NCBI GenBank assembly: GCA_963803635.1
Contig: CAWDNJ010000001.1
Span: 344,668-408,667, forward strand
Source of the DNA: an uncultured Acidobacteriota bacterium
GTDB lineage: Bacteria; Acidobacteriota; Terriglobia; Acidiferrales; UBA7541
Direction: 5' to 3'
Length of the DNA stretch: 64,000 bases
A model generated the notes under the pieces. It was given only the letters and a program-made list of their open reading frames with translations, did no database searches and was not told the DNA's origin. The position numbers and the translations under genes are program-made. Below are positions 2,798 through 18,768 of this stretch, piece by piece (the first letter of the stretch is position 1; each line of letters begins with the position of its first letter).

Positions 2798-3814
2798 ATG
2801 AAACACAAGATCACATCAATTCCAGGTGACGGAATCGGACCCGAGGTTTCCCGCGCGGTGCGCGAAATCATCGCCGCGGCAGGCGTCGAAGTCGAATGGG
2901 AAGACACCGAGGCGAAAGGCGACATCCACGAACACGGCGCGGCGTCGATCCGCCACGCGGTCGTCGAGTCCATCCGCAAGAATCGCGTGGCGTTGAAAGG
3001 GCCTCTTGCCACGGCCGTCGCCAGCGGCCCACCGAGCATCAACGTCGCTCTGCGCAAGGCGCTCGACCTTTTCGCCAACGTGCGCCCGGTAAAGAATCTC
3101 GAGGGCGTTCCCTGCCGCTACCAAAACGTCGACTTGGTCCTGATCCGCGAGAATACCGAGGATTTGTACGCCGGGCTCGAGCACACCGTGGTGCCGGGCG
3201 TCGTCGAAAGCCTCAAGATCATCACGGAAAAAGCATCCTCGCGCGTCGCGCGCTACGCCTTCGAATATGCGCGGAAGCACGGCCGCAAAAAGATCCATGC
3301 CATCCACAAAGCGAACATCATGAAGCTTTCGGACGGTCTCTTCCTTTCGTCCGTGCGCGCGATCGCCGAGGAATATCCCGAAATTCAGTATAAGGAACTC
3401 ATCGTCGATAACGCCTGCATGCAGATGGTGCTCAACCCGTCGCAATTCGACATGCTGCTGCTCACCAATCTCTACGGCGACATCATGAGCGACCTCGCCG
3501 CGGGTCTCGTCGGCGGGCTGGGTGTGGTACCGAGTGGAAACATCGGGGCGGACTCGGCGATCTTCGAGGCTGTGCACGGCACCGCGCCGGACATCGCTGG
3601 CAAAGGCGTCGCCAATCCTACCGCCCTGCTGATGAGCGCCATCATGATGCTCGACCACATCGGCGAAACATCGGCCGCGCAGCGAATTGATGCAGCGCTG
3701 CACGAAGTCTATCGCGAAGGCCGCCCGCTCACGCGCGACGTCGGCGGCACGGCCACCACCGCGCAATTCACCGAAGCGGTGATCAACAAACTCGGGGTCG
3801 CCGTCCGCGCGTAG
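2798..3814 (+). CDS. Isocitrate/isopropylmalate dehydrogenase family, most likely NAD-dependent isocitrate dehydrogenase
   Basis: 338 aa. Motifs are IPGDGIGPEV, LKGPLATAVASGPPSINVALRKALDLFANVRP, IRENTEDLYAG and NLYGDIMSDLAAGLVGGLGVVPSGNIG, which resemble IDH3-type enzymes. Confidence 0.85.
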   Translation: MKHKITSIPGDGIGPEVSRAVREIIAAAGVEVEWEDTEAKGDIHEHGAASIRHAVVESIRKNRVALKGPLATAVASGPPSINVALRKALDLFANVRPVKNLEGVPCRYQNVDLVLIRENTEDLYAGLEHTVVPGVVESLKIITEKASSRVARYAFEYARKHGRKKIHAIHKANIMKLSDGLFLSSVRAIAEEYPEIQYKELIVDNACMQMVLNPSQFDMLLLTNLYGDIMSDLAAGLVGGLGVVPSGNIGADSAIFEAVHGTAPDIAGKGVANPTALLMSAIMMLDHIGETSAAQRIDAALHEVYREGRPLTRDVGGTATTAQFTEAVINKLGVAVRA

Positions 3815-3841
3815 TTTGGTCCTGGCCCGCAAACGCCAGAT

Positions 3842-3892
3842 CGTCATTCTGCTTGCCCTGACGAAGGAAGGGAGCGAAGCGAAGAATCTCTC
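3842..3892 (+). repeat. REP-like element, family A (cgtcattctg..gccctgacgaaggaagg..gcgaagcgaagaatctctc)
   Basis: The core recurs at 16811-16834 (inverted), 52496-52615 (tandem), 53870-53902 and 55961-56005 (inverted). All copies are intergenic. Confidence 0.8.
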
Positions 3893-3924
3893 TTTGGACG
3901 CCTCATGCGAGGATGCGCGCTTGG

Positions 3925-3960
3925 GTTTCTCTGCGCCCTCGGCGTCTCTGCGGTGAACCT
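3925..3960 (-). repeat. REP-like element, family B (cacagag/gcagag-rich), inverted copy
   Basis: The plus strand reads ggtttctctgcgccctcggcgtctctgcggtgaacc. It is the reverse orientation of the cagagacgcagag type seen at 57025-57058 and 34720-34735. Confidence 0.6.
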
Positions 3961-3988
3961 TGTTTTGAGTCGTATCGTCGTGGCCAGG

Positions 3989-4396
3989 TCAGTTCGCAGG
4001 CTCCATATGCAGCACCACGATGGTGTTGGTGCTGCTATCGAGCACGCCGGTGAGCTTCACCTTCTGCCCGGCGTACTTCTCGGCGAGGACCTGATTGTCG
4101 AGCTTGTAGACCTTTTCTTTCACTGATAGCACGAACACGCCGCCCATGTATTTCACGCAGTAGCGCGCGCACTCGGCCGGGGTAGTGCCGATGTTTTTCT
4201 TCTTCAGCATCTCCTCGTGCGAGCGGCTGAGCGAATGCACGTTGAGCGCGCACTGCGAGTCGGAGATATCGCCACTGAAAACCTGCACGCGCTCTCCGGC
4301 CATCATGCCGGCGCGGATCCCGGCCAGCAGGAGAATCACGCCCAACATTGTTGCGATCGTTGCGGCCACGAATCGAACCGAAGTCTTTCTGCTCAT
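3989..4396 (-). CDS. Hypothetical N-terminally anchored protein (135 aa), last gene of the porin/cytochrome/cupredoxin operon
   Basis: AAGGGGAG lies upstream of the ATG at 4396. It has a TM anchor (VRFVAATIATMLGVILLLAGI) and Cys/His-containing segments (SQCALNVHSLSRSHEEM, ECARYCVKYM). The gap to the upstream gene is 31 nt. Confidence 0.7.
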   Translation of the reverse strand: MSRKTSVRFVAATIATMLGVILLLAGIRAGMMAGERVQVFSGDISDSQCALNVHSLSRSHEEMLKKKNIGTTPAECARYCVKYMGGVFVLSVKEKVYKLDNQVLAEKYAGQKVKLTGVLDSSTNTIVVLHMEPAN

Positions 4397-4427
4397 CTTT
4401 CACTCCCCTTGTTTGTATTCCAATAGA

Positions 4428-4874
4428 TCACGGTACGACCACGAACCGCATGTGCATCCCGTCATGATCGTCGCTGCAAATCACGGTGCAGACCACCACG
4501 TATTCGCCAGGTTCGGCCGGCGCCGTCACCGGTAAATCCTGAACTCCCGGCTTCAGCAAGAAATCCCAGCCCGGAACCCTCGAACGATCCTTCGCATGCA
4601 GGAGCGCGAAGCCGTGAATCGAGCCGTCACGGTTGCGATTCTTCGCTTTCCGTGCGGTGATTCGCAGTAAAAGAACCTCGCCCGCATGCGCCGTAATCGT
4701 GGGACTCTCCTGTCCGTCGATCCGGAACCGGCTGTCGTGATCGGCCACGATCTCGATCACGCGCGGTGTGTCTGGCTCCGCCCGGCGCGCCGCGAGCACC
4801 AGCGACAATGCCGCGGCCGTCATCCCGCCTAGCAGCAGCGCCCGGCTCATCGCAGAATCTCTCGAACCATGCAT
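4428..4874 (-). CDS. Cupredoxin-fold protein with CuA-type (Cx3Cx3Hx2M) metal-site spacing
   Basis: 148 aa with an N-terminal signal/anchor (SRALLLGGMTAAALSLVLAARRA). The C-terminal CTVICSDDHDGM has the same spacing as the CuA site of COX2 (CSEICGANHSFM). Upstream His residues sit in SIHGFALLHAK. GGGAGAGG is 8 nt before the ATG at 4874, and an alternative ATG lies at 4850. Confidence 0.8.
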   Translation of the reverse strand: MHGSRDSAMSRALLLGGMTAAALSLVLAARRAEPDTPRVIEIVADHDSRFRIDGQESPTITAHAGEVLLLRITARKAKNRNRDGSIHGFALLHAKDRSRVPGWDFLLKPGVQDLPVTAPAEPGEYVVVCTVICSDDHDGMHMRFVVVP

Positions 4875-4895
4875 CGAAGAATCCTCTCCCGGATG

Positions 4896-5264
4896 TTATT
4901 GCGTCATGTAATGCAGGATCACGCGCATGTCTTCGTCGGTGATCGTCGCGCGCACCCGCATGTGACGTATAGCCGTGGCCATCATGCGCGGCGGCAGCTT
5001 GTGCGGAGCCTGATGGCAGCGCCCGCAATTGTCATGGAATCGTTTTTCGCCTTCGAGCCGCAGCGCATCTTCGTCCTCTTGCCTTGACGGAGTGGGCTGC
5101 GCCACAGCTGTCTTGCTCGCTGTGGCCGATGCGGGCACGGGATCGTTATTGCTCGCAACTTTTGTTTCCTGGCCGGTCCCCTGCTGCGCCGCGACCATCC
5201 CAGGAATGGCTATGACTCCGCCCACCAGCATGAAAGTCGCAAACGCGAGAAGCCGCGTCTTCAT
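4896..5264 (-). CDS. Monoheme c-type cytochrome (122 aa, secreted)
   Basis: It has a signal peptide (MKTRLLAFATFMLVGGVIAIPGMVAAQQ), a single CGRCH heme-binding motif, and downstream Met candidates (PPRMMATAIRHM). Its ATG overlaps the stop of the upstream barrel gene (ATGA at 5261-5264). Confidence 0.85.
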   Translation of the reverse strand: MKTRLLAFATFMLVGGVIAIPGMVAAQQGTGQETKVASNNDPVPASATASKTAVAQPTPSRQEDEDALRLEGEKRFHDNCGRCHQAPHKLPPRMMATAIRHMRVRATITDEDMRVILHYMTQ

Positions 5265-6382
5265 TGAATGTCTCCGTGCCCCACGGGGAGCGCCAGCCGG
5301 TACGTCACGCCGACGTTCCAGACGTTCATGTTCCCGCCTTGCGGCGCAAACTGCCTGCCGTAGCTGCTCACCAGCCGGAAATCGTCGCGGAAATAGTAGT
5401 TCACGCCAAATTCGAACATGTTCGTGTTCACGGATGGCAGGACTCCGTTCGGCACTTTGCCGACATAGAATTGCTGCATCCGCCCTACCACCTGCACGTG
5501 CCGCAATTCGTGCTGCCAGACCGGCGCCTGGCTCAACCGGTACGCCGACTCCACCCAGTAGCCGCTGCCGGTGTCCGAGCGCGCGTATTCGGCGCGAAGA
5601 TCGAAAGGAATCGGAGGGGGCTGCCAGGCGAAGTGGAATCCGAATGCGTTGGAGTGGTCGTCCTGCAGGAGGTGCTGATACGATCCGCCCACTTCGAGCC
5701 GCGGCCCCGGCAGATAGATGCCTGCGCGCGCGCCGAGCTCGCGCTCGGAATCCAGAGGCGTGTCTGTGCTCAACGTCGAAAAATAGGTCGCGTAGTTGAC
5801 TTCTACTTTAGGCGCGATGTTGAAGCCCCCGCGCACCATGGCGCCCGTCCCGGCGCCGCTCGGCCCGGTCGAAATCGGCAGGATCAGCGGATCGGTCTGC
5901 AGATTGCGGATCCAGACGGGATATAGCCGCTCGTTAAAGATTCCAAAGGGCGTGAGGAATCGCCCCACGGTCACGGTCATATGCGAATTGACGATGTAAT
6001 CCAGCTGCAGGTAGTCGACTTCCTTTTGCAGGTAGCCTTTGTAGCCGCTCTCGCCCGGCACCGGAGCCATGTTGATTTCAAACGTGTCGCGCGATTCGAT
6101 CAGCCAGTTTTGCCCCAACGGAATCAAAACCACGGGCGACACCAGCGGGTGCACATTCGGCGTGCCGCCTTGGAAGAACGTGTTGTACGCCAAGCCCGCC
6201 GAGAAGACGGGGACGGGGCTGATCGACTGCGAATCCGCAAGCGCAGCATCGATTTGTGCCTCGGTGTCGGATTGCGCTTGTGCGTCCGACTGCGCCTGCG
6301 TTTCGGCTTGTGACTGCGCCAAGAGACTGGGCGCGAGGCAAAGCGCGATCAGCGCCGGAACGAACAGGGGCCATGCTCGCAT
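5261..6382 (-). CDS. Outer-membrane beta-barrel (porin-like) protein
   Basis: The ORF is 5261..6448. I prefer the ATG at 6382 (MRAWPLFVPALIALCLAPSLLAQSQ signal peptide). The sequence shows an alternating amphipathic beta-strand pattern throughout with aromatic girdle residues, for example FEFGVNYYFRDDFRLVSSYGRQF and NVGVTYRL. Confidence 0.75.
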   Translation of the reverse strand: MRAWPLFVPALIALCLAPSLLAQSQAETQAQSDAQAQSDTEAQIDAALADSQSISPVPVFSAGLAYNTFFQGGTPNVHPLVSPVVLIPLGQNWLIESRDTFEINMAPVPGESGYKGYLQKEVDYLQLDYIVNSHMTVTVGRFLTPFGIFNERLYPVWIRNLQTDPLILPISTGPSGAGTGAMVRGGFNIAPKVEVNYATYFSTLSTDTPLDSERELGARAGIYLPGPRLEVGGSYQHLLQDDHSNAFGFHFAWQPPPIPFDLRAEYARSDTGSGYWVESAYRLSQAPVWQHELRHVQVVGRMQQFYVGKVPNGVLPSVNTNMFEFGVNYYFRDDFRLVSSYGRQFAPQGGNMNVWNVGVTYRLALPVGHGDIQ

Positions 6383-6738
6383 GGGACGCGGCGTGTGGCG
6401 CTCCGCTGGAGCTAGCGGGCCTACTGAGATGGAAGACAACTCAAGCATTTGCGCCTATCCCACCGAACGTTGGAATGCCTGCCTACCGTACCCCGGGAGT
6501 GTTGCTGAGTCTCAAGTTAGGGGAGGCACACGACGAGGTCAACTTCACGAAGCGCATGCCCGCTCGTTGCCGCTATTAGCAGGTAGTGAACAATGAGTAC
6601 TAGTGTCAGGGATGAAATAGCGCTGTACCGTTGGCCAGTATGCAGTTCGCGACCGGTGCGGGCCGAATCCGAGGCCGTCGCGGTGCCCCTGCTAGACTTT
6701 TCGTAGCCCGAAAGGGCCGTTCGCGGAGGGAGGACCTC

Positions 6739-7431
6739 ATGGCGAATGCGTCGGACGCCAAACGCATTTATCAGGTTTTCAGCTGGGCATGTCTCGGAGT
6801 GATTGTTCTGATCGTGATCCTGGTGCTGCACAAATCGCCCGCGCCGAATGTGCTCTACGATCCCGCCGCAGCGGCGCGCGCCCAGCAGAAATTCGCTGCC
6901 GCCGACCAAGCTACGGCTGCCGGGCAGCCAGCGAAGGTCTCGATCGATCGCACCGAGCTCAATTCGTATTTGCAGCAGAACCTGCAGGTGCAGGGATCAT
7001 CGCCTGCAAGCTCCCCGGCAACCTCTTCCGCAGCAGCTCCGGATGCTTCCGATGGCGCACCGGGCGATGGCGCTGCGTCCAGCGATCCGATGGCCGATGT
7101 GGGTCAAATGACGCAGGCGCAAGTCGCCTCCGCCGTCAAGGACGTGAAAGTCGACATGGACGGCGACCTCATCAAAGCACACATCATCTTCAATCTTCAC
7201 GGGCAGGACTTGTCGCTCGATCTCGATGGCCATCTCGTCAGCGAAAACGGCTACCTGAAATTCGAGCCAGTCGCCGGGAAACTCGGTTCTCTGCCCTTGC
7301 CGCAATCGGTCCTAGACGCGGCGGTCGACAAGCTGATGTCGTCGCCCGACAACCGCGACAAGATGAAGCTCCCCGACGACATCAACGACATCCAGATCCA
7401 GAACGGCCAAGCCGTCGTCTCCTACAAATGA
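6739..7431 (+). CDS. Hypothetical N-terminally anchored protein
   Basis: Internal ATG at 6739 preceded by GGAGGGAGGA. It has a TM anchor (VFSWACLGVIVLIVILVLH), a Ser/Ala/Pro-rich linker, then a beta-rich C-terminal domain. Confidence 0.7.
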   Translation: MANASDAKRIYQVFSWACLGVIVLIVILVLHKSPAPNVLYDPAAAARAQQKFAAADQATAAGQPAKVSIDRTELNSYLQQNLQVQGSSPASSPATSSAAAPDASDGAPGDGAASSDPMADVGQMTQAQVASAVKDVKVDMDGDLIKAHIIFNLHGQDLSLDLDGHLVSENGYLKFEPVAGKLGSLPLPQSVLDAAVDKLMSSPDNRDKMKLPDDINDIQIQNGQAVVSYK

Positions 7432-7663
7432 GGGGGCGTGTGCCTCTTGCCTCGGACGTTGCAGTGCATACACAGTTCGCGGCCGTGCGCCCACCTCATC
7501 CGCGCCGAATCTCTTAGCGAATTCTCGCCAATCCTCGAAAATTGCGCCTCACCCATCGCCGATTGCCGCAACGCGCGTCTGGAACCCCGCATGCCTTGTG
7601 TGCGCTTGGCTGCGAATTTGGCGGCATTTCACGCGCTGCGAAACAGACGGAAAAGGAGCCAAC

Positions 7664-8437
7664 ATGGATGACGCGAATCGAACGAACCGGACCGAAGCAG
7701 CGCTGGCCGGATCGCTGCTGGCCGTCGGGCTTATCGTCGGAGGCTGGGTCCTGGGAGCGCAGATCAAAGCTACACGGCTTGGCGACCGCTACGTCTCGGT
7801 GCGCGGTTTGGCCGAGCGCACCGTGAAGGCCGACCTCGCCATTTGGCCGATCGATTACAAGGAAGCCGGGAACGATCTGCCATCGCTCTATTCAAAGGCG
7901 GAGACCGACAAGAAGATCATCCTGCAATTTCTCAATCAAGAAGGCATTCAATCCTCCGAAATCGCGGTCGGCATGGCCGGCGTCACCGACAACCAAGCGA
8001 ACGAGTACGGCGGCAACCGTCATGCCCCGTACCGTTACATCGTCGAACAGGAAATCAGCGTCCAGACGCCGCGCGTCGATCAGGTCGCGGCCGCCGCGCA
8101 GAAGTCCATCAACCTCGTGCAGCAAGGCATCGTTCTGACGACCAACTCCAACGGAGGGATCGCCTACAAGTTCAATGGATTGAACTTGATCAAACCCGAC
8201 ATGATCACGGAAGCCACGCGAAACGCCCGAGCGGCGGCTGAAAGATTCGCGCTCGACGCCGGGAGTTCGGTCGGCACGATCCGGCAGGCGAATCAAGGGG
8301 TCTTTTCGATTCTCGCGGCAAACTCTGGCGTCCCGGCCGATTCGGGCGACGGTGGCGGTTTTGGCTCAAACGCCGATGGCAGTCTGATGAAAACGGTGCG
8401 GGTCGTAACGGACGTCCAGTATTACTTAGGAAAGTGA
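7664..8437 (+). CDS. SIMPL (DUF541) domain protein
   Basis: ATG at 7664 preceded by AAGGAG. It has a TM anchor followed by RYVSVRGLAERTVKADLAIWPI...YRYIVEQEISVQT...GSLMKTVRVVTDVQYYL, which matches the SIMPL layout. Confidence 0.75.
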   Translation: MDDANRTNRTEAALAGSLLAVGLIVGGWVLGAQIKATRLGDRYVSVRGLAERTVKADLAIWPIDYKEAGNDLPSLYSKAETDKKIILQFLNQEGIQSSEIAVGMAGVTDNQANEYGGNRHAPYRYIVEQEISVQTPRVDQVAAAAQKSINLVQQGIVLTTNSNGGIAYKFNGLNLIKPDMITEATRNARAAAERFALDAGSSVGTIRQANQGVFSILAANSGVPADSGDGGGFGSNADGSLMKTVRVVTDVQYYLGK

Positions 8438-8452
8438 CGACCGACGACGTCG

Positions 8453-8929
8453 TCAGAGGCGCTGGAGCTTGCCGGCGGCCGGCCAGATCGGACTGTACGC
8501 CACGTAGAGCAGCCAGTACACGATCACACCCGTTACCGATACATAGAGCCACAGCGGCAGCGTCCATTTCGCGATCGCGCGATGCGCCGCGAATTTTCCG
8601 CGCAGCCCGCGCGTCAGCGTGATCAGGACGAGCGGGACGATCACCACGGCGAGGGTGGTGTGCGTGAGCAGCAGCGTGAAGTAGACGGGGCGAATCCAGC
8701 CCTGCCCGCCGAAGCGGATCACTCCCGCGCTGAAATGAAAATAGAGGTAGAGGGCGAGGAACAGCGTCGAGCAGCAGAACGCGGCGATCATGAAAATGCG
8801 ATGAACGGCGATCTTGCCGCTGCGGATCATCACGTAGCCGCAGACCAGCAGCACCGCGCACGCGCCATTCAGCGAAGCATTCACCGCGGGGAGAGATCGA
8901 ATCGGCAGAAGATCGGCGGCTAGCGTCAT
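8453..8929 (-). CDS. DUF420 membrane protein (commonly linked to heme-copper oxidase clusters)
   Basis: 158 aa with 4 TM helices. It has NASLNGACAVLLVCGYVMIR..K.I..H...M and HRAIAKWTLPLWLYVSVTGVIVYWLLY motifs. Confidence 0.8.
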   Translation of the reverse strand: MTLAADLLPIRSLPAVNASLNGACAVLLVCGYVMIRSGKIAVHRIFMIAAFCCSTLFLALYLYFHFSAGVIRFGGQGWIRPVYFTLLLTHTTLAVVIVPLVLITLTRGLRGKFAAHRAIAKWTLPLWLYVSVTGVIVYWLLYVAYSPIWPAAGKLQRL

Positions 8930-9021
8930 GCGGCGAACGCCTTTCCGTATTCATCGGCGTACCCCGGGGCGGAAATCGACCCCGCACCCCCCGCGGCTAA
9001 AGCCACACTAACGAGCGTCAC

Positions 9022-9072
9022 TTTTCGAGGGCCTGAAGGCCCACGCTTCCACCCACCGGCTTCGCCGGAACC
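9022..9072 (+). repeat. REP-like element, family C (ttttcgagRgcctgaaggcYcacgcttccacc...)
   Basis: A near-identical core occurs at 12444-12485. Confidence 0.75.
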
Positions 9073-9100
9073 AGAACATTTCCCATGACGTGCGTCGTCA

Positions 9101-9994
9101 TTAACGCATGACCAGCTTATCGAGGATCAGCCAACCGAGCAGCAGCGGAATGTGCGCGATGGTCGCGTGCATCAGCCATTTCGCGCGCGCGTTCGTTCGC
9201 GAGCGGTTCGCCCATAGCCCAACTTGCAGCAGCAGCATCCCCAGCACCAGCGCGCCAAAGAAATACAGCTTCCCCGCCATCCCGATCACCGACGGCAGCG
9301 CGCTGACCCATACTAGAATTGCCGACGTGCAAACGATTTGGCGGAAGGTGGAATCGCCGGAGCGGTCGACCACCGGCAGCATGCGGATCCCGGCGCGCGC
9401 GTAGTCTTCGCGATACATCCACGCTATCGACATGAAATGCGGGAACTGCCAGAAGAAAAGAATCGCGACCAGCACCCATCCGCCGAGGCCGAGCGAGCCG
9501 CGGGTGGCGGCCCATCCGATCAGCGGAGGCAGCGCGCCGGGAATCGCGCCGACGGCCGTCGAGAGCGGCGTGCGCGTCTTGAGAGGCGTGTACAGGCCGA
9601 GGTACAGGAGCGACGTCGCCAGCGCGACGAGGCACGCGAGCAGATTCGCGGCAATCGCGAGCCACGCCGCACCCGCCACGATCGTGACGATCCCGAAGAT
9701 CAGCACGTCGCGGGGCTGCAACACGCCCATCGGCAGCGGCCGCGCGGCCGTGCGGCGCATTACCGCGTCCATCTCGCGCTCGATGTATTGATTCAGCGCG
9801 GCCGTCCCGCCCGCCACCAGCATCGTCGCGAGCACGGTGTTCAGCAGCAGCGCCCAATTCATCGCGCCCGTCGAGCCAAGATAGAATCCCGCGACCGTGG
9901 TCATTACAACGAGAAATGTCACGTCCGGCTTGGTGAGCACGACGTACGCCCACGGCTTCTCGTAGTTCGTGATCGTGGCGGCGCGTTCGTTCAT
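9101..9994 (-). CDS. ctaB: Protoheme IX farnesyltransferase (heme o synthase)
   Basis: Internal ATG at 9994 (MNERAATITNYEKPWAYVVLTKPDVTFLVVMTT). It is a UbiA-family polytopic protein with YIEREMDAVMRRTAARPLP. Its start overlaps the ctaA stop (ATGA at 9991-9994). Confidence 0.9.
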   Translation of the reverse strand: MNERAATITNYEKPWAYVVLTKPDVTFLVVMTTVAGFYLGSTGAMNWALLLNTVLATMLVAGGTAALNQYIEREMDAVMRRTAARPLPMGVLQPRDVLIFGIVTIVAGAAWLAIAANLLACLVALATSLLYLGLYTPLKTRTPLSTAVGAIPGALPPLIGWAATRGSLGLGGWVLVAILFFWQFPHFMSIAWMYREDYARAGIRMLPVVDRSGDSTFRQIVCTSAILVWVSALPSVIGMAGKLYFFGALVLGMLLLQVGLWANRSRTNARAKWLMHATIAHIPLLLGWLILDKLVMR

Positions 9995-10920
9995 TGCGCT
10001 GCCCTCACGCCTTCGCTCGCATGCGCCACCGCTGCCGAGCCCGCCCGCCGCGTCAGCCGCTGGCACGTGAGAGTGAGCAGCACGGACGCGGCGATGGTCA
10101 GCGCACCGCCGACCACGTGGGCCGCCGTCAGCGTGACGTAGAGCGTCGTCGGCTGCACGGCGGCGATTCCGGAAGTCATCGCCCACCACGCCGCGAATCC
10201 CAACAGAATCTGTATCCCGAAGAACATATGCAGCCACATCACGCGCCGCCGAAGGTCACGCACGCCGCGAAAACGCTTCTTCACGACGCGGCCGGTCCAG
10301 ACCACCATCAGGGTCACCGCGCCCGCTCCGATCAAATGCGGCACGATCCCAAGAGCGCCGTGGCGGAAAGCGGCGCCCAAAAGAATCTGGCCGAGGATCA
10401 CGAGTGTCGTCCACCACCCGAGCGTCGTGGCGCGCAGCGAGCCGGAATCTTCGAGGTGCGGCAGCTCGCTCTGCCACCACGGGCTCAGGTAGAGAGCGAT
10501 TCCCACCAGCGTTACAAAGAAGACCTGCGCCAGCGTCGCGTGCGCGGTGGCGGAAACGATCGGAGCGCCTTCGAGAACCCGGATTCCGCCGAGGATCGCC
10601 TGCGCCACGACGAGCGCGACCGCGTTCCAGCCCAGGCTCTTGGCCAGCGGACGGCGGTCCTTGGCCGTGATCCACACGGCCAGGATGAGCGTCATGATCG
10701 AGACGATTCCGGCAATCACGCGGTGCGAATATTCGAAGCGAATGCCGCCGACAAAGGGAGGAATCAGCCGGTGGTAAGCGAGGGGCCAATCGGGAACGGA
10801 ATCTCCGGCGTCGTTGTTCGTCACCAGCGCGCCCGCCATCAGCAGCAGCACCGTGAACCACGCCGTCGTCACCGCAAAGCGGTATAGACCGCGAGACGTT
10901 GGAGTGGAGTTTGGCGCCAT
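9991..10920 (-). CDS. ctaA: Heme a synthase (COX15/CtaA family)
   Basis: 309 aa with about 8 TM helices. It has conserved His-containing motifs (EYSHRVIAGIV, ATAHATLAQVFF, FRHGALGIVPHLIGAG, LTAAHVVGGAL). Confidence 0.85.
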   Translation of the reverse strand: MAPNSTPTSRGLYRFAVTTAWFTVLLLMAGALVTNNDAGDSVPDWPLAYHRLIPPFVGGIRFEYSHRVIAGIVSIMTLILAVWITAKDRRPLAKSLGWNAVALVVAQAILGGIRVLEGAPIVSATAHATLAQVFFVTLVGIALYLSPWWQSELPHLEDSGSLRATTLGWWTTLVILGQILLGAAFRHGALGIVPHLIGAGAVTLMVVWTGRVVKKRFRGVRDLRRRVMWLHMFFGIQILLGFAAWWAMTSGIAAVQPTTLYVTLTAAHVVGGALTIAASVLLTLTCQRLTRRAGSAAVAHASEGVRAAQ

Positions 10921-17544: not shown

Positions 17545-18768
17545 TTATGCGGGCTGGGGCGCGTTGTAGAAATTGCCGGAGCGCACGTTGACGAGCGGGG
17601 GCGCGGGATTGAAGGTGACGCCGACGGGATCGCCTCCCTCGGCGACCACGCGAATCTGCGCCTTCAGCATGCGCCGCTGCATGATGATGCCACGATCGCT
17701 GGATGCGAGATGTTCCTCGGAGTGCAGCGAGATCGGGCCCTGGCCGGCCTGAGCTTCGTAATCGCCGGGCGTGTCCTGATGCTCCTCGATGGACATTTGG
17801 CCCCAGAGCTTGCCGTTCATGCGGAAACCGTTGCCGCCGCTGAAGAAATCGGGCGCGCCTTTTGGGAGCCGCGTCGCGGTGGCCATCGTGAAATGCGAAT
17901 CATCGACCGGCAGCGACCACGTGATCATGTTCGAGCGGATCTGAGTGATGTCGATCGGATTGGGCACCGACATGATATTCGGCATGATCCACGAGGAAAT
18001 GCGGTCATACTCGCGGCCGTCGTCGAGCTTGCGCTTGGCCGAGTAACACACGCCGTTTTCGGTGGCAAAGAAATCGACCTGAGGCATCAGCGCGAACTGC
18101 GGCGCAAATTGCACGCCGGTGAAGGTCGAGTGCAGCACGTAGACGTGGTAGGGATCCATTACGTTGTCGTTCATGTGCAGCCAGCTGTAGGGCGCGATGG
18201 GAAGGCTGTTGTCGCCGGTTGAGCCGAAGGCGCCGACGTACGCGCGGATTTCCTCATCGGGGCCGAGGTCTTCGAGGATGTCGAAGCGCGGGAGCGCCGG
18301 CTTCTTCTCAAGCGGGCCCATGTAGGCGAAGACCATGCCGTAGTGGTCCTCGACCGGATACCAGGGTTGGCGCGCCACTTCGAGGTTGCGTCCGCCTTCG
18401 GGCTCGCAGGGCTGGCGAAGGCAGTGGCCTTCCACATCGAAAAGCCAGCCATGATAGCAGCAGGCGATGCCCTCTTCGGAAACCTTGCCGTAGAGGAGCG
18501 TGGTCCCGCGATGCATGCAGCGCGGATAGAGCAGGCCGGGGCGGCCGCTCTTGTCGCGGAAGAGGATCAGATCTTCGCCGAGGATGCGAACGTATTGCGG
18601 CCGCGCGGTGACATTCGCGGATGCGGCGACGGGCTGCCAGTAGCGGCGCATGAGTTCGCCGCACGGAGTGCCCGGGCCGACCTGCGTGAGTTCGTAATCG
18701 GGATGCTGCACGGTCCGGCCGTAGGCGCCGCCATCGGCCGACCGCTTTCGTTGCGTTGCCTCGCTCAT
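17545..18768 (-). CDS. Rieske [2Fe-2S] non-heme iron oxygenase, alpha-subunit type
   Basis: 407 aa. The Rieske motif is CMHRG...(x17)...CCYHGW. The mononuclear iron motif is DPYHVYVLH (D-x2-H-x4-H). Confidence 0.9.
   Translation of the reverse strand: MSEATQRKRSADGGAYGRTVQHPDYELTQVGPGTPCGELMRRYWQPVAASANVTARPQYVRILGEDLILFRDKSGRPGLLYPRCMHRGTTLLYGKVSEEGIACCYHGWLFDVEGHCLRQPCEPEGGRNLEVARQPWYPVEDHYGMVFAYMGPLEKKPALPRFDILEDLGPDEEIRAYVGAFGSTGDNSLPIAPYSWLHMNDNVMDPYHVYVLHSTFTGVQFAPQFALMPQVDFFATENGVCYSAKRKLDDGREYDRISSWIMPNIMSVPNPIDITQIRSNMITWSLPVDDSHFTMATATRLPKGAPDFFSGGNGFRMNGKLWGQMSIEEHQDTPGDYEAQAGQGPISLHSEEHLASSDRGIIMQRRMLKAQIRVVAEGGDPVGVTFNPAPPLVNVRSGNFYNAPQPA

Follow-up and report, generated by a model that had tools for sequence, protein, structure and literature searches.

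A free-standing CuA-type cupredoxin encoded beside a small barrel and a monoheme cytochrome in Acidobacteriota: a possible shuttle for a two-protein conduit across the outer membrane

An operon at positions 3,989 to 6,382 of a 64,000-nt stretch of DNA from an uncultured bacterium of the Acidobacteriota (Acidiferrales, UBA7541; assembly GCA_963803635.1, contig CAWDNJ010000001.1, positions 344,668 to 408,667; the whole stretch is hereafter the window) encodes an outer-membrane barrel, a monoheme cytochrome c, a cupredoxin and a DUF5818 protein, and raises the question of what these four proteins do together. An earlier note on this DNA had suggested a split redox module, similar to Cyc2 or to porin-cytochrome (PCC) modules, that uses a soluble carrier of the CuA type. 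Our analyses indicated that the barrel and the cytochrome probably form a miniature path, so far undescribed, by which electrons cross the cell envelope. The case is evenly balanced that all four genes make up a self-contained electron-transfer module of the envelope, with barrel and cytochrome as its outer-membrane end and the CuA protein as its shuttle. A more specific proposal is advanced tentatively and given somewhat less than an even chance: that the soluble, free-standing CuA protein serves as periplasmic shuttle to a conduit across the outer membrane made of two proteins, a barrel of ~16 strands and a monoheme cytochrome of 55 residues, and that this conduit is interchangeable with those of the MtrAB type. 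The four genes are as follows.

5261..6448, minus strand: outer-membrane beta-barrel (395-aa open reading frame, ORF; likely start M23 at 6382)
4896..5264, minus strand: minimal monoheme cytochrome c, putatively class I (122 aa; CGRCH at 5013-5027)
4428..4874, minus strand: free-standing secreted CuA-type cupredoxin (148 aa; Cys/His/Met loop at 4455-4490)
3989..4396, minus strand: DUF5818 protein (135 aa; N-terminal signal or anchor helix)

According to the ORF listing the four genes are co-directional and tightly packed on the minus strand. The barrel stop and the cytochrome start overlap in the ATGA CAATGAAG at 5261-5264, the gap between the cytochrome and the cupredoxin is 21 nt and that between the cupredoxin and the DUF5818 gene is 31 nt; the fourth gene is preceded by a good Shine-Dalgarno sequence, GGGGAG. 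A hydrophobic export signal was read at the N-terminus of all four products, and the barrel start at 6382 (MRAWPLF) gives a normal Sec signal, MRAWPLFVPALIALCLAPSLLA, with cleavage before QS. The packing and spacing had been described in the earlier note and were all correct by coordinates, as were, upon translation, the single CGRCH of the cytochrome (5013-5027) and the Cx3Cx3Hx2M ending of the cupredoxin (4455-4490, CTVICSDDHDGM); the ORF call and the AlphaFold2 (AF2) model likewise agreed with a cupredoxin of ~148 aa carrying one N-terminal signal or anchor.

The cupredoxin was recognised from its sequence and predicted structure as a genuine homologue of CuA domains, free-standing and with all the predicted ligands. 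By fold, profile and ligands it falls in the CuA-domain superfamily and outside the curated family models. Pfam gave no match for it, CoxB (TIGR02866) scored 15.6 bits, far below the cut-off of 147.7, and its NCBIfam matches, with CoxB and the C-terminal part of NosZ, were faint. The AF2 model has a cupredoxin fold with a predicted local distance difference test (pLDDT) score of 77, the metal loop being low as expected without copper. Its top Foldseek matches were 7deg_B, 6pty, 2cua, 2qpe_B and NosZ 1fwx, with probability 1.00; auracyanin and AcoP were also in the list, auracyanin among the best structural matches, and 2yev_B (caa3 subunit II) appeared among the matches of both the cupredoxin and the cytochrome. 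Comparison of the family profile with the CuA domain of Thermus ba3 oxidase gave E-values of 5e-7 to 1e-6, and the alignment placed the conserved His on VIHGF and the loop on CNQYCGLGHQNM, so that all five side-chain ligands were aligned; the VIHGF His and the Cys, Cys, His and Met of the loop are the CuA ligands of ba3. The order of the ligands agrees with the canonical CuA topology, in which the beta3-beta4 loop supplies the first His and the beta7-beta8 loop the remaining four (PMC6189053).

The ligand set comprises His87 (4614-4616) and Cys129-x3-Cys133-x3-His137-x2-Met140 (4455-4490). All five residues were invariant across 79 Acidoferrales sequences and in members about 40% identical, in a family with a mean column identity of 43%. 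In divergent members, 27-55% identical to the alignment reference, H, C, C, H and M are exactly the invariant polar residues, and their loop is often ECTVKCGxGHxxM, very like the CSExCGxxHxxM of oxidases. The CuA-type ligand spacing pointed out earlier was borne out by the ba3 profile match with its five aligned ligands, by this invariance and by the CuA matches of Foldseek. A His had been noticed 35 or 41 residues upstream of the first Cys; both exist (His93 x35, His87 x41), and only His87 is conserved. His93 and His46 were rejected as ligands, being not conserved outside the close clade. The ORF and the AF2 model contain a single N-terminal signal helix only and no transmembrane hairpin, and the mature protein, of 115-120 residues, is probably soluble in the periplasm because divergent members carry classical cleavable signal peptides.

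The database contained 2,663 relatives of the cupredoxin. Soil and peat Acidobacteriota, under the labels Ca. Acidiferrales, Acidoferrum or Sulfotelmatobacter, account for almost all of them, and JGI annotations name the protein 'oxidase subunit 2' by automatic transfer. The family is small and isolated, because an exhaustive search of 1.84 billion representative proteins returned 198 clusters only, nearly all of 100-170 aa, and none of them contained members of CoxB length.

The evidence that bears most directly on the function of the operon came from the operons of relatives. Members of the cupredoxin family were found directly upstream of NrfC/NrfD-like genes and c-type cytochromes at loci L126, L164 and L166-L171. 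In L126, L166 and L167 the cupredoxin is followed by a DsrO/NrfC-like 4Fe-4S protein, a DsrP/NrfD-like membrane protein and c-type cytochromes. In L164, L168 and L169 a decaheme cytochrome (10 CXXCH) and a large outer-membrane protein are encoded just upstream of the cupredoxin; the decaheme protein of L164 passes the DmsE-family model TIGR03508 (217.6 bits, cut-off 192.2), and the large outer-membrane protein of L169 is PF11854 MtrB_PioB. In L170, L171 and L152 a small barrel and a mini-cytochrome occupy the slot of the decaheme and MtrB genes, with the stop/start overlap again present; these barrels are 40-44% identical to that of the window (E 1e-75 to 1e-87; L170 40%, E 8e-75).

Comparison of L169 with L170 revealed that the two operons are otherwise orthologous, with identities of 62% for the histidine kinase, 66% for the sigma54 regulator, 55% for a cytochrome c of about 410 aa, 75% for the cupredoxin, 85% for the NrfC-like protein and 71% for the NrfD-like protein. 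The only difference is that the decaheme cytochrome and MtrB_PioB of the former are swapped for the small barrel and mini-cytochrome in the latter; L164 and L168 resemble L169, and L171 and L152 resemble L170. We regard the swap as the strongest evidence, good and indirect, that the small pair does the job of a porin-cytochrome pair: it is likely to be conduit-like because it is exchanged for a known porin-cytochrome pair in orthologous operons. Of the proposal of a split Cyc2- or PCC-like module with a soluble CuA carrier, the conduit idea thus gained support from the slot swap and the carrier from the CuA homology, while the likeness to the named systems did not hold, since the pair is not fused as in Cyc2 and, with one heme and an unrelated barrel, is not MtrAB/PCC.

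Two further observations were made at these loci. At 2482-2898 L168 encodes a second cupredoxin paralogue, whose tblastn match has 69% identity to the cupredoxin of L169. It stands some 5 kb upstream of the main copy, before the genes for the decaheme cytochrome and the large outer-membrane protein. At L170:8256-11207 the NrfD-like protein, of 983 aa, is fused to C-terminal cytochrome c domains, while those of L169 and L171 have 688-695 aa and lack them.

The barrel scored 29.8 bits against Pfam Porin_O_P (cut-off 20.9) over profile positions 51-190 of 370 only, and the barrels of a divergent clade described below had no Pfam match, Porin_O_P not being reached. The fit to a phosphate porin family, which had been considered, extends over that part of the profile only, and the linkage of the barrel to the cytochrome is conserved. 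A plain substrate porin is possible because Porin_O_P was passed, though partially. The family profile found no solved relatives among the PDB sequences, OprP included. PF11854 (MtrB_PioB) did not match the window barrel, hhalign gave no homology between the barrel profile and the MtrB_PioB protein of L169 (probability 0.5%), and Pfam and NCBIfam scans showed no similarity to CopB/PcoB or to TonB-dependent copper importers. About 16 strands were read by hand from the hydrophobic alternation profile of 104 aligned sequences. The most conserved stretch, GRFLTPFGIFNERLYPVWIRNLQTDPLILP at 5876-5965, was read as a long loop that follows strand 5 and resembles L3 of general porins. The barrel sequence contains no CXXCH. 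At the loci examined the barrel gene always adjoins the cytochrome gene, and no fusions of the two were seen, the cytochrome being a separate downstream gene in all of them.

In the cytochrome the signal peptide is followed by a linker of about 45 aa, variable and rich in Ala, Ser, Pro and Thr, and then by a heme domain of about 55 aa. Only the C-terminal ~55 residues are conserved (EGEKRF..NCGRCH..P.K.PPR.MAT..RHMRVRA.ITDEDMR.IL.YMTQ). The CXXCH and H101-M102 are invariant in both clades, and M102 (4959-4961) is the likely distal heme ligand. The single CGRCH predicts one heme per cytochrome, against about 10 in the DmsE/MtrA family. Pfam cytochrome models stayed below the cut-off for the window protein (13.9 vs 27). 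Its best PDB profile match was cytochrome c of Rhodothermus marinus (3cp5, E 1e-3), in an alignment limited to the two terminal helices, the N-terminal one including the CXXCH, and NCBIfam gave a weak match to a PedF-type cytochrome c550 (E 0.007). From these matches we infer a pared-down class I cytochrome with His/Met ligation.

Next to the swap stands the conservation of the four genes as a unit. A scan of one genome per GTDB species returned 80 loci of Ca. Acidoferrales. By tblastn with the window proteins, neither the order nor the strand of barrel, cytochrome, cupredoxin and DUF5818 varied among the loci of sufficient length, and the overlap of the barrel stop and cytochrome start recurs among the homologous loci; the view of the four genes as one conserved unit was thereby upheld across 80 species. 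The flanks vary by subclade. The following genes, which the earlier note had mentioned for their proximity, lie on one side of the window operon.

8453-10920: ctaA, ctaB and DUF420 genes, ~2 kb from the operon

They are indeed close in the window, while ctaA-ctaB-DUF420 were found upstream in about 31 of the 80 loci only (roughly 40%). A divergent pqqBCDE operon flanks about 16 of the 80, and the remaining loci have unrelated genes there. Because gene order is kept while the flanks are not constant, the module is the four genes, and the heme A neighbourhood is a feature of a subclade. The cta genes were rejected as part of the module, their linkage being absent from most of the 80 genomes and divergent genes intervening.

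In the subclade with pqq genes (about 16 of loci L004-L083), pqqB-pqqC-(pqqD)-pqqE stand directly upstream of the barrel in divergent orientation, for example at L029:2966-6087, where PqqB, PqqC and PqqE are all NCBIfam equivalogs above cut-off. This neighbourhood could be inherited synteny, or it may hint at a connection with quinoprotein respiration in the periplasm. Operons 57-86% identical to that of the window were also seen on contigs of metagenome-assembled genomes (L007, L021, L025, L032, L033, L047, L068 and L082) binned as Baltobacteraceae, Gammaproteobacteria, Tepidisphaeraceae, Verrucomicrobiia, Cybelea, Udaeobacter and Limnocylindria. Mis-binning is more likely here than transfer, because these operons are highly identical to Acidoferrales genes and have flanks in common with them (IDH).

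A metagenome scan for a divergent clade, with the four closer sequences of the alignment as query, showed the triad barrel-cytochrome-cupredoxin in that order in at least 52 of 80 metagenome loci. Barrel and cytochrome of this clade are each about 40% identical to those of the window, and DUF5818 is absent. A CXXCH protein of the Haem_bd family (PF14376) accompanies the triad at either end: downstream of the cupredoxin, the slot of DUF5818 in the clade of the window, in L085, L086, L087, L088, L095, L130, L148 and L150, and upstream of the barrel at L094:4022-4594, L107:3365-3865, L111:4045-4536 and L131:3976-4464.

The fourth protein of the window scored 24.3 bits against PF19135 (cut-off 27), and most of its homologues carry a precomputed PF19135 assignment. 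Cys49, His54, His60, Met63, Cys76 and Cys80 (4157-4252) are invariant in the DUF5818 homologues. The AF2 model (pLDDT 78.6) is an OB-fold with a helical insert that bears the invariant Cys, His and Met residues. Foldseek returned only weak OB-fold matches in the PDB (best E 0.08; CcmE at rank 32), so no function was transferred. A natural cupredoxin::DUF5818 fusion was found in one instance (P0241, 252 aa, L172:1683-2441), behind a barrel and a mini-cytochrome; being single, it is possibly an assembly artefact. The L172 contig, of 2,975 nt, also holds a Fur/PerR-family regulator downstream on the opposite strand and a C-terminal fragment of a cation-diffusion facilitator upstream (flanks 15-230 and 2509-2955). 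DUF5818 is taken as a clade-specific fourth component and putative metal-binding partner of the cupredoxin.

Around the operon, two divergently transcribed genes stand between it and the cta genes. One (window 6631-7431, plus strand) encodes a 266-aa protein with one transmembrane helix, an Ala/Ser/Pro-rich stretch and no Pfam match, which in about 25-30 genomes is conserved in divergent orientation between the operon of the barrel and the DUF420/ctaB/ctaA genes; the adjoining one is a SIMPL (DUF541) gene at 7598-8437. On the minus strand at 722-1447 a 241-aa secreted protein without Pfam match has a long Q/K/E/P/A repeat run (AKPAQHEEQAKPAKQERQAKPAQQEQ...) and a short Tyr/Trp-rich C-terminal domain, and a similar Q/K/E-rich ORF occurs in L029 at 736-1419. 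A 407-aa protein with an N-terminal Rieske [2Fe-2S] domain is encoded about 11 kb from the module (17545-18768, minus strand). The remainder of the sampled window looks like ordinary chromosome, with dnaE, myo-inositol-1-phosphate synthase, M61 peptidase and GntR-aminotransferase genes. Among the larger ORFs sampled across the 64 kb, a sampling and not an exhaustive scan, there was no catalytic subunit of a heme-copper oxidase; the absence of a coxA/coxC neighbour claimed earlier was in line with this and with the loci examined, none having been found nearby. No sigma70 promoters or intrinsic terminators were found in a scan of 3700-6800, and Rfam and tRNA scans of the window gave no RNA genes. 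In the 330 nt upstream of the barrel in 75 loci, FNR/CRP, Fur, MerR/CueR, sigma54 and Rrf2-like patterns had 0 matches, and 8-mer enrichment gave lineage-specific k-mers only.

Taken together, a mechanism may be proposed in which the barrel of ~16 strands and the translationally coupled His/Met monoheme cytochrome c would form the outer-membrane end of a chain and act as a miniature, non-homologous analogue of MtrAB/PioAB. The soluble cupredoxin, with its predicted binuclear CuA-type centre, would carry electrons through the periplasm. In the related operons this putative shuttle is encoded beside an NrfC/NrfD (DsrO/DsrP-like) iron-sulfur and membrane module that would link it to the quinone pool. 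In the clade of the window the inner-membrane quinone partner would be encoded elsewhere; the Cys/His/Met-rich OB-fold DUF5818 is present instead and may partner the cupredoxin in redox reactions or in the handling of copper. High potentials are the rule for His/Met hemes and for CuA centres. Since both carriers are of such types, electrons would most likely flow inward: an external or pore-entering reductant (in acid soil and peat Fe(II), Mn(II) or reduced humics) would feed the aerobic chain or, uphill, the quinone pool. The opposite direction, toward acceptors of high potential in acid soil, is also possible and is not favoured.

The main rival to this conduit, which we consider rather unlikely, holds that an ordinary solute porin of the Porin_O_P type admits a substrate and that the cytochrome and the CuA cupredoxin are a periplasmic relay only, with no heme in the membrane. 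The carriers would then take electrons to the oxidase or the quinone pool from a periplasmic reaction, either direct oxidation of Fe(II) by the cytochrome or that of a quinoprotein or molybdoenzyme dehydrogenase encoded elsewhere. Pairs of a cytochrome and a cupredoxin are classical acceptors of periplasmic quinoproteins, and the divergent pqqBCDE beside the module in about 16 of the 80 genomes and the PedF-type match of the cytochrome fit such a role, as the Porin_O_P score and the roughly 16 strands with a strongly conserved L3-like loop fit the porin. At the loci examined, however, the conserved unit never included a dehydrogenase, and the barrel and cytochrome genes keep their tight translational coupling. 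The Porin_O_P match covers only part of the profile and disappears in the divergent clade, and a search with the barrel profile reached no porin of known structure. It is also hard to explain for a mere solute channel that the pair is replaced as a unit by a decaheme cytochrome and MtrB_PioB in orthologous operons. Several points nevertheless weigh against the conduit. The barrel is above the Porin_O_P cut-off, is small and has no detectable homology to MtrB, and its strand count is a manual estimate; its conserved segment, like the lumen-filling L3 of diffusion porins, would leave little inner room for a heme domain, and one heme cannot span the membrane unless it is seated in the pore. No barrel-cytochrome fusion was seen, no quinone module adjoins the module in the window itself, and the heme A and PQQ gene neighbours in subclades could point to a purely periplasmic respiratory role. 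The support for the conduit mechanism comes from comparative genomics.

Two other explanations are less likely than a porin with a periplasmic relay. It is highly improbable that cytochrome c and CuA cupredoxin together represent a soluble, detached part of a caa3 oxidase encoded elsewhere, a split subunit II with the barrel and DUF5818 as passengers. The homology of the cupredoxin to oxidase CuA domains and the pairing of cytochrome c with CuA, which mirrors caa3 subunit II (2yev_B), would agree with it, and so would ctaA/ctaB/DUF420 2 kb away in the window and linked in roughly 40% of the 80 genomes. That linkage is absent in the remaining genomes, however, coxA/coxC were not found nearby and no COX1 was present in the flanks of any locus examined. 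The cupredoxin lacks the two transmembrane helices of subunit II, and its family is isolated from CoxB-length proteins among the 1.84 billion proteins searched. What is conserved beside it is the barrel and, at other loci, NrfCD and MtrAB-like genes, in no case an oxidase. Least probable of all is a role in acquiring or handling copper, in which the barrel would import the metal, the cupredoxin and DUF5818 would bind or chaperone it, for example for oxidase assembly, and the cytochrome would reduce Cu(II). The Cys/His/Met-rich sites of both small proteins, the heme A genes near the operon in one subclade and the Fur-family regulator and cation-diffusion-facilitator fragment at L172, the sole fusion locus, may be cited for it. 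The ligands, on the other hand, are exactly those of an electron-transfer CuA centre held in a rigid cupredoxin, the family is linked to NrfCD, decaheme and MtrB genes, the barrel is unlike CopB/PcoB or TonB-dependent copper importers, and no copper-responsive operator was found upstream of the barrel.

Canonical CuA centres are known only from cytochrome oxidases, some NO reductases and N2O reductase, where they form the built-in site of electron entry. If the conduit reading is true, the cofactor would have a new role in a secreted, stand-alone protein, which would be the first CuA centre to serve as a mobile carrier rather than as an enzyme domain, the design space of extracellular electron-transfer conduits would extend down to a minimal form, and soil and peat Acidobacteriota would possess a widespread pathway of Fe, Mn or humic redox cycling that has gone unrecognised. 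Ca. Acidoferrales and their relatives are abundant in acid soils and peat. The Ca. Acidoferrales lineage has been proposed to be iron cyclers only from homologues of multiheme cytochromes (PMC7980381), and a module of barrel, monoheme cytochrome and CuA protein would give such claims a testable molecular basis. The cupredoxin family counts thousands of sequences and the module appears interchangeable with MtrAB-like genes; hidden Markov models of the triad could join catalogues of iron-cycling genes. The literature searched on DUF5818, on Cyc2 with Porin_O_P, on MtrB, NrfD and cupredoxin in Acidobacteria and on soluble CuA carriers, largely without subscription journals, gave no account of the module, in keeping with the earlier remark that the arrangement was not recognised as described.

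Among known systems, the chain of MtrAB/PioAB/MtoAB, MtoD and CymA is similar in that a barrel gene stands beside the gene of a periplasm-facing c-type cytochrome, followed by a small carrier and a quinone-linked module, and the small pair and the decaheme-MtrB_PioB pair are interchangeable in the same slot of Acidobacteriota operons. The window pair, however, has one heme instead of ten and a barrel of about 330 residues and, by manual estimate, ~16 strands instead of ~26, with no detectable homology; the proposed shuttle is a CuA cupredoxin here and a monoheme cytochrome (MtoD) there, while the quinone module is of the NrfCD/DsrOP type, not adjacent in the window, rather than of the CymA/NapC type. 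The Cyc2-rusticyanin pathway (the rus operon of Acidithiobacillus and Cyc2 of neutrophilic Fe(II) oxidisers) shares the combination of an outer-membrane porin and a monoheme cytochrome, the proposed handing of electrons to a periplasmic cupredoxin and, in some genomes, a genomic link to aa3-type respiration; Cyc2 and Cyc572 have about 16-17 strands (PMC10654088), and ~16 were read by hand for the present barrel. The architecture sets the two apart, Cyc2 being one fused polypeptide with an N-terminal heme motif and the present pair two genes with the barrel first, and rusticyanin holds mononuclear type 1 copper where a CuA-type centre is predicted here.

The cupredoxin itself resembles the CuA domains of Thermus ba3 subunit II (2cua) and N2O reductase in fold and in the His...Cys-x3-Cys-x3-His-x2-Met residues, aligned residue for residue, but it is free-standing and secreted, without transmembrane hairpin or catalytic partner domain; its His-to-Cys spacing is 37-41 residues against 34 in ba3, and it stays below the COX2/CoxB cut-offs. 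Alternative complex III, which works with auracyanin in Chloroflexus and with cytochrome c and caa3 in Rhodothermus, is likewise a quinol module of the NrfC/NrfD type with a small carrier, either a cupredoxin or a class-I cytochrome, and auracyanin and the R. marinus cytochrome c were among the best structural matches of the cupredoxin and the best match of the mini-cytochrome, respectively; auracyanin, however, binds type 1 copper, and the complex has the extra subunits ActA, ActE and ActF and no outer-membrane component. A free-standing periplasmic cupredoxin able to form a CuA-like centre outside oxidases and N2O reductase is known in PmoD/AmoD, at a homodimer interface with a non-canonical Cx7MxH motif and no canonical beta7-beta8 loop ligands (PMC6189053), while the window cupredoxin has the canonical intramolecular set. 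The module would work like the MtrAB/MtoAB-MtoD-CymA or Cyc2-rusticyanin chains, yet by its architecture lies outside the Cyc2, MtrAB and oxidase subunit II families.

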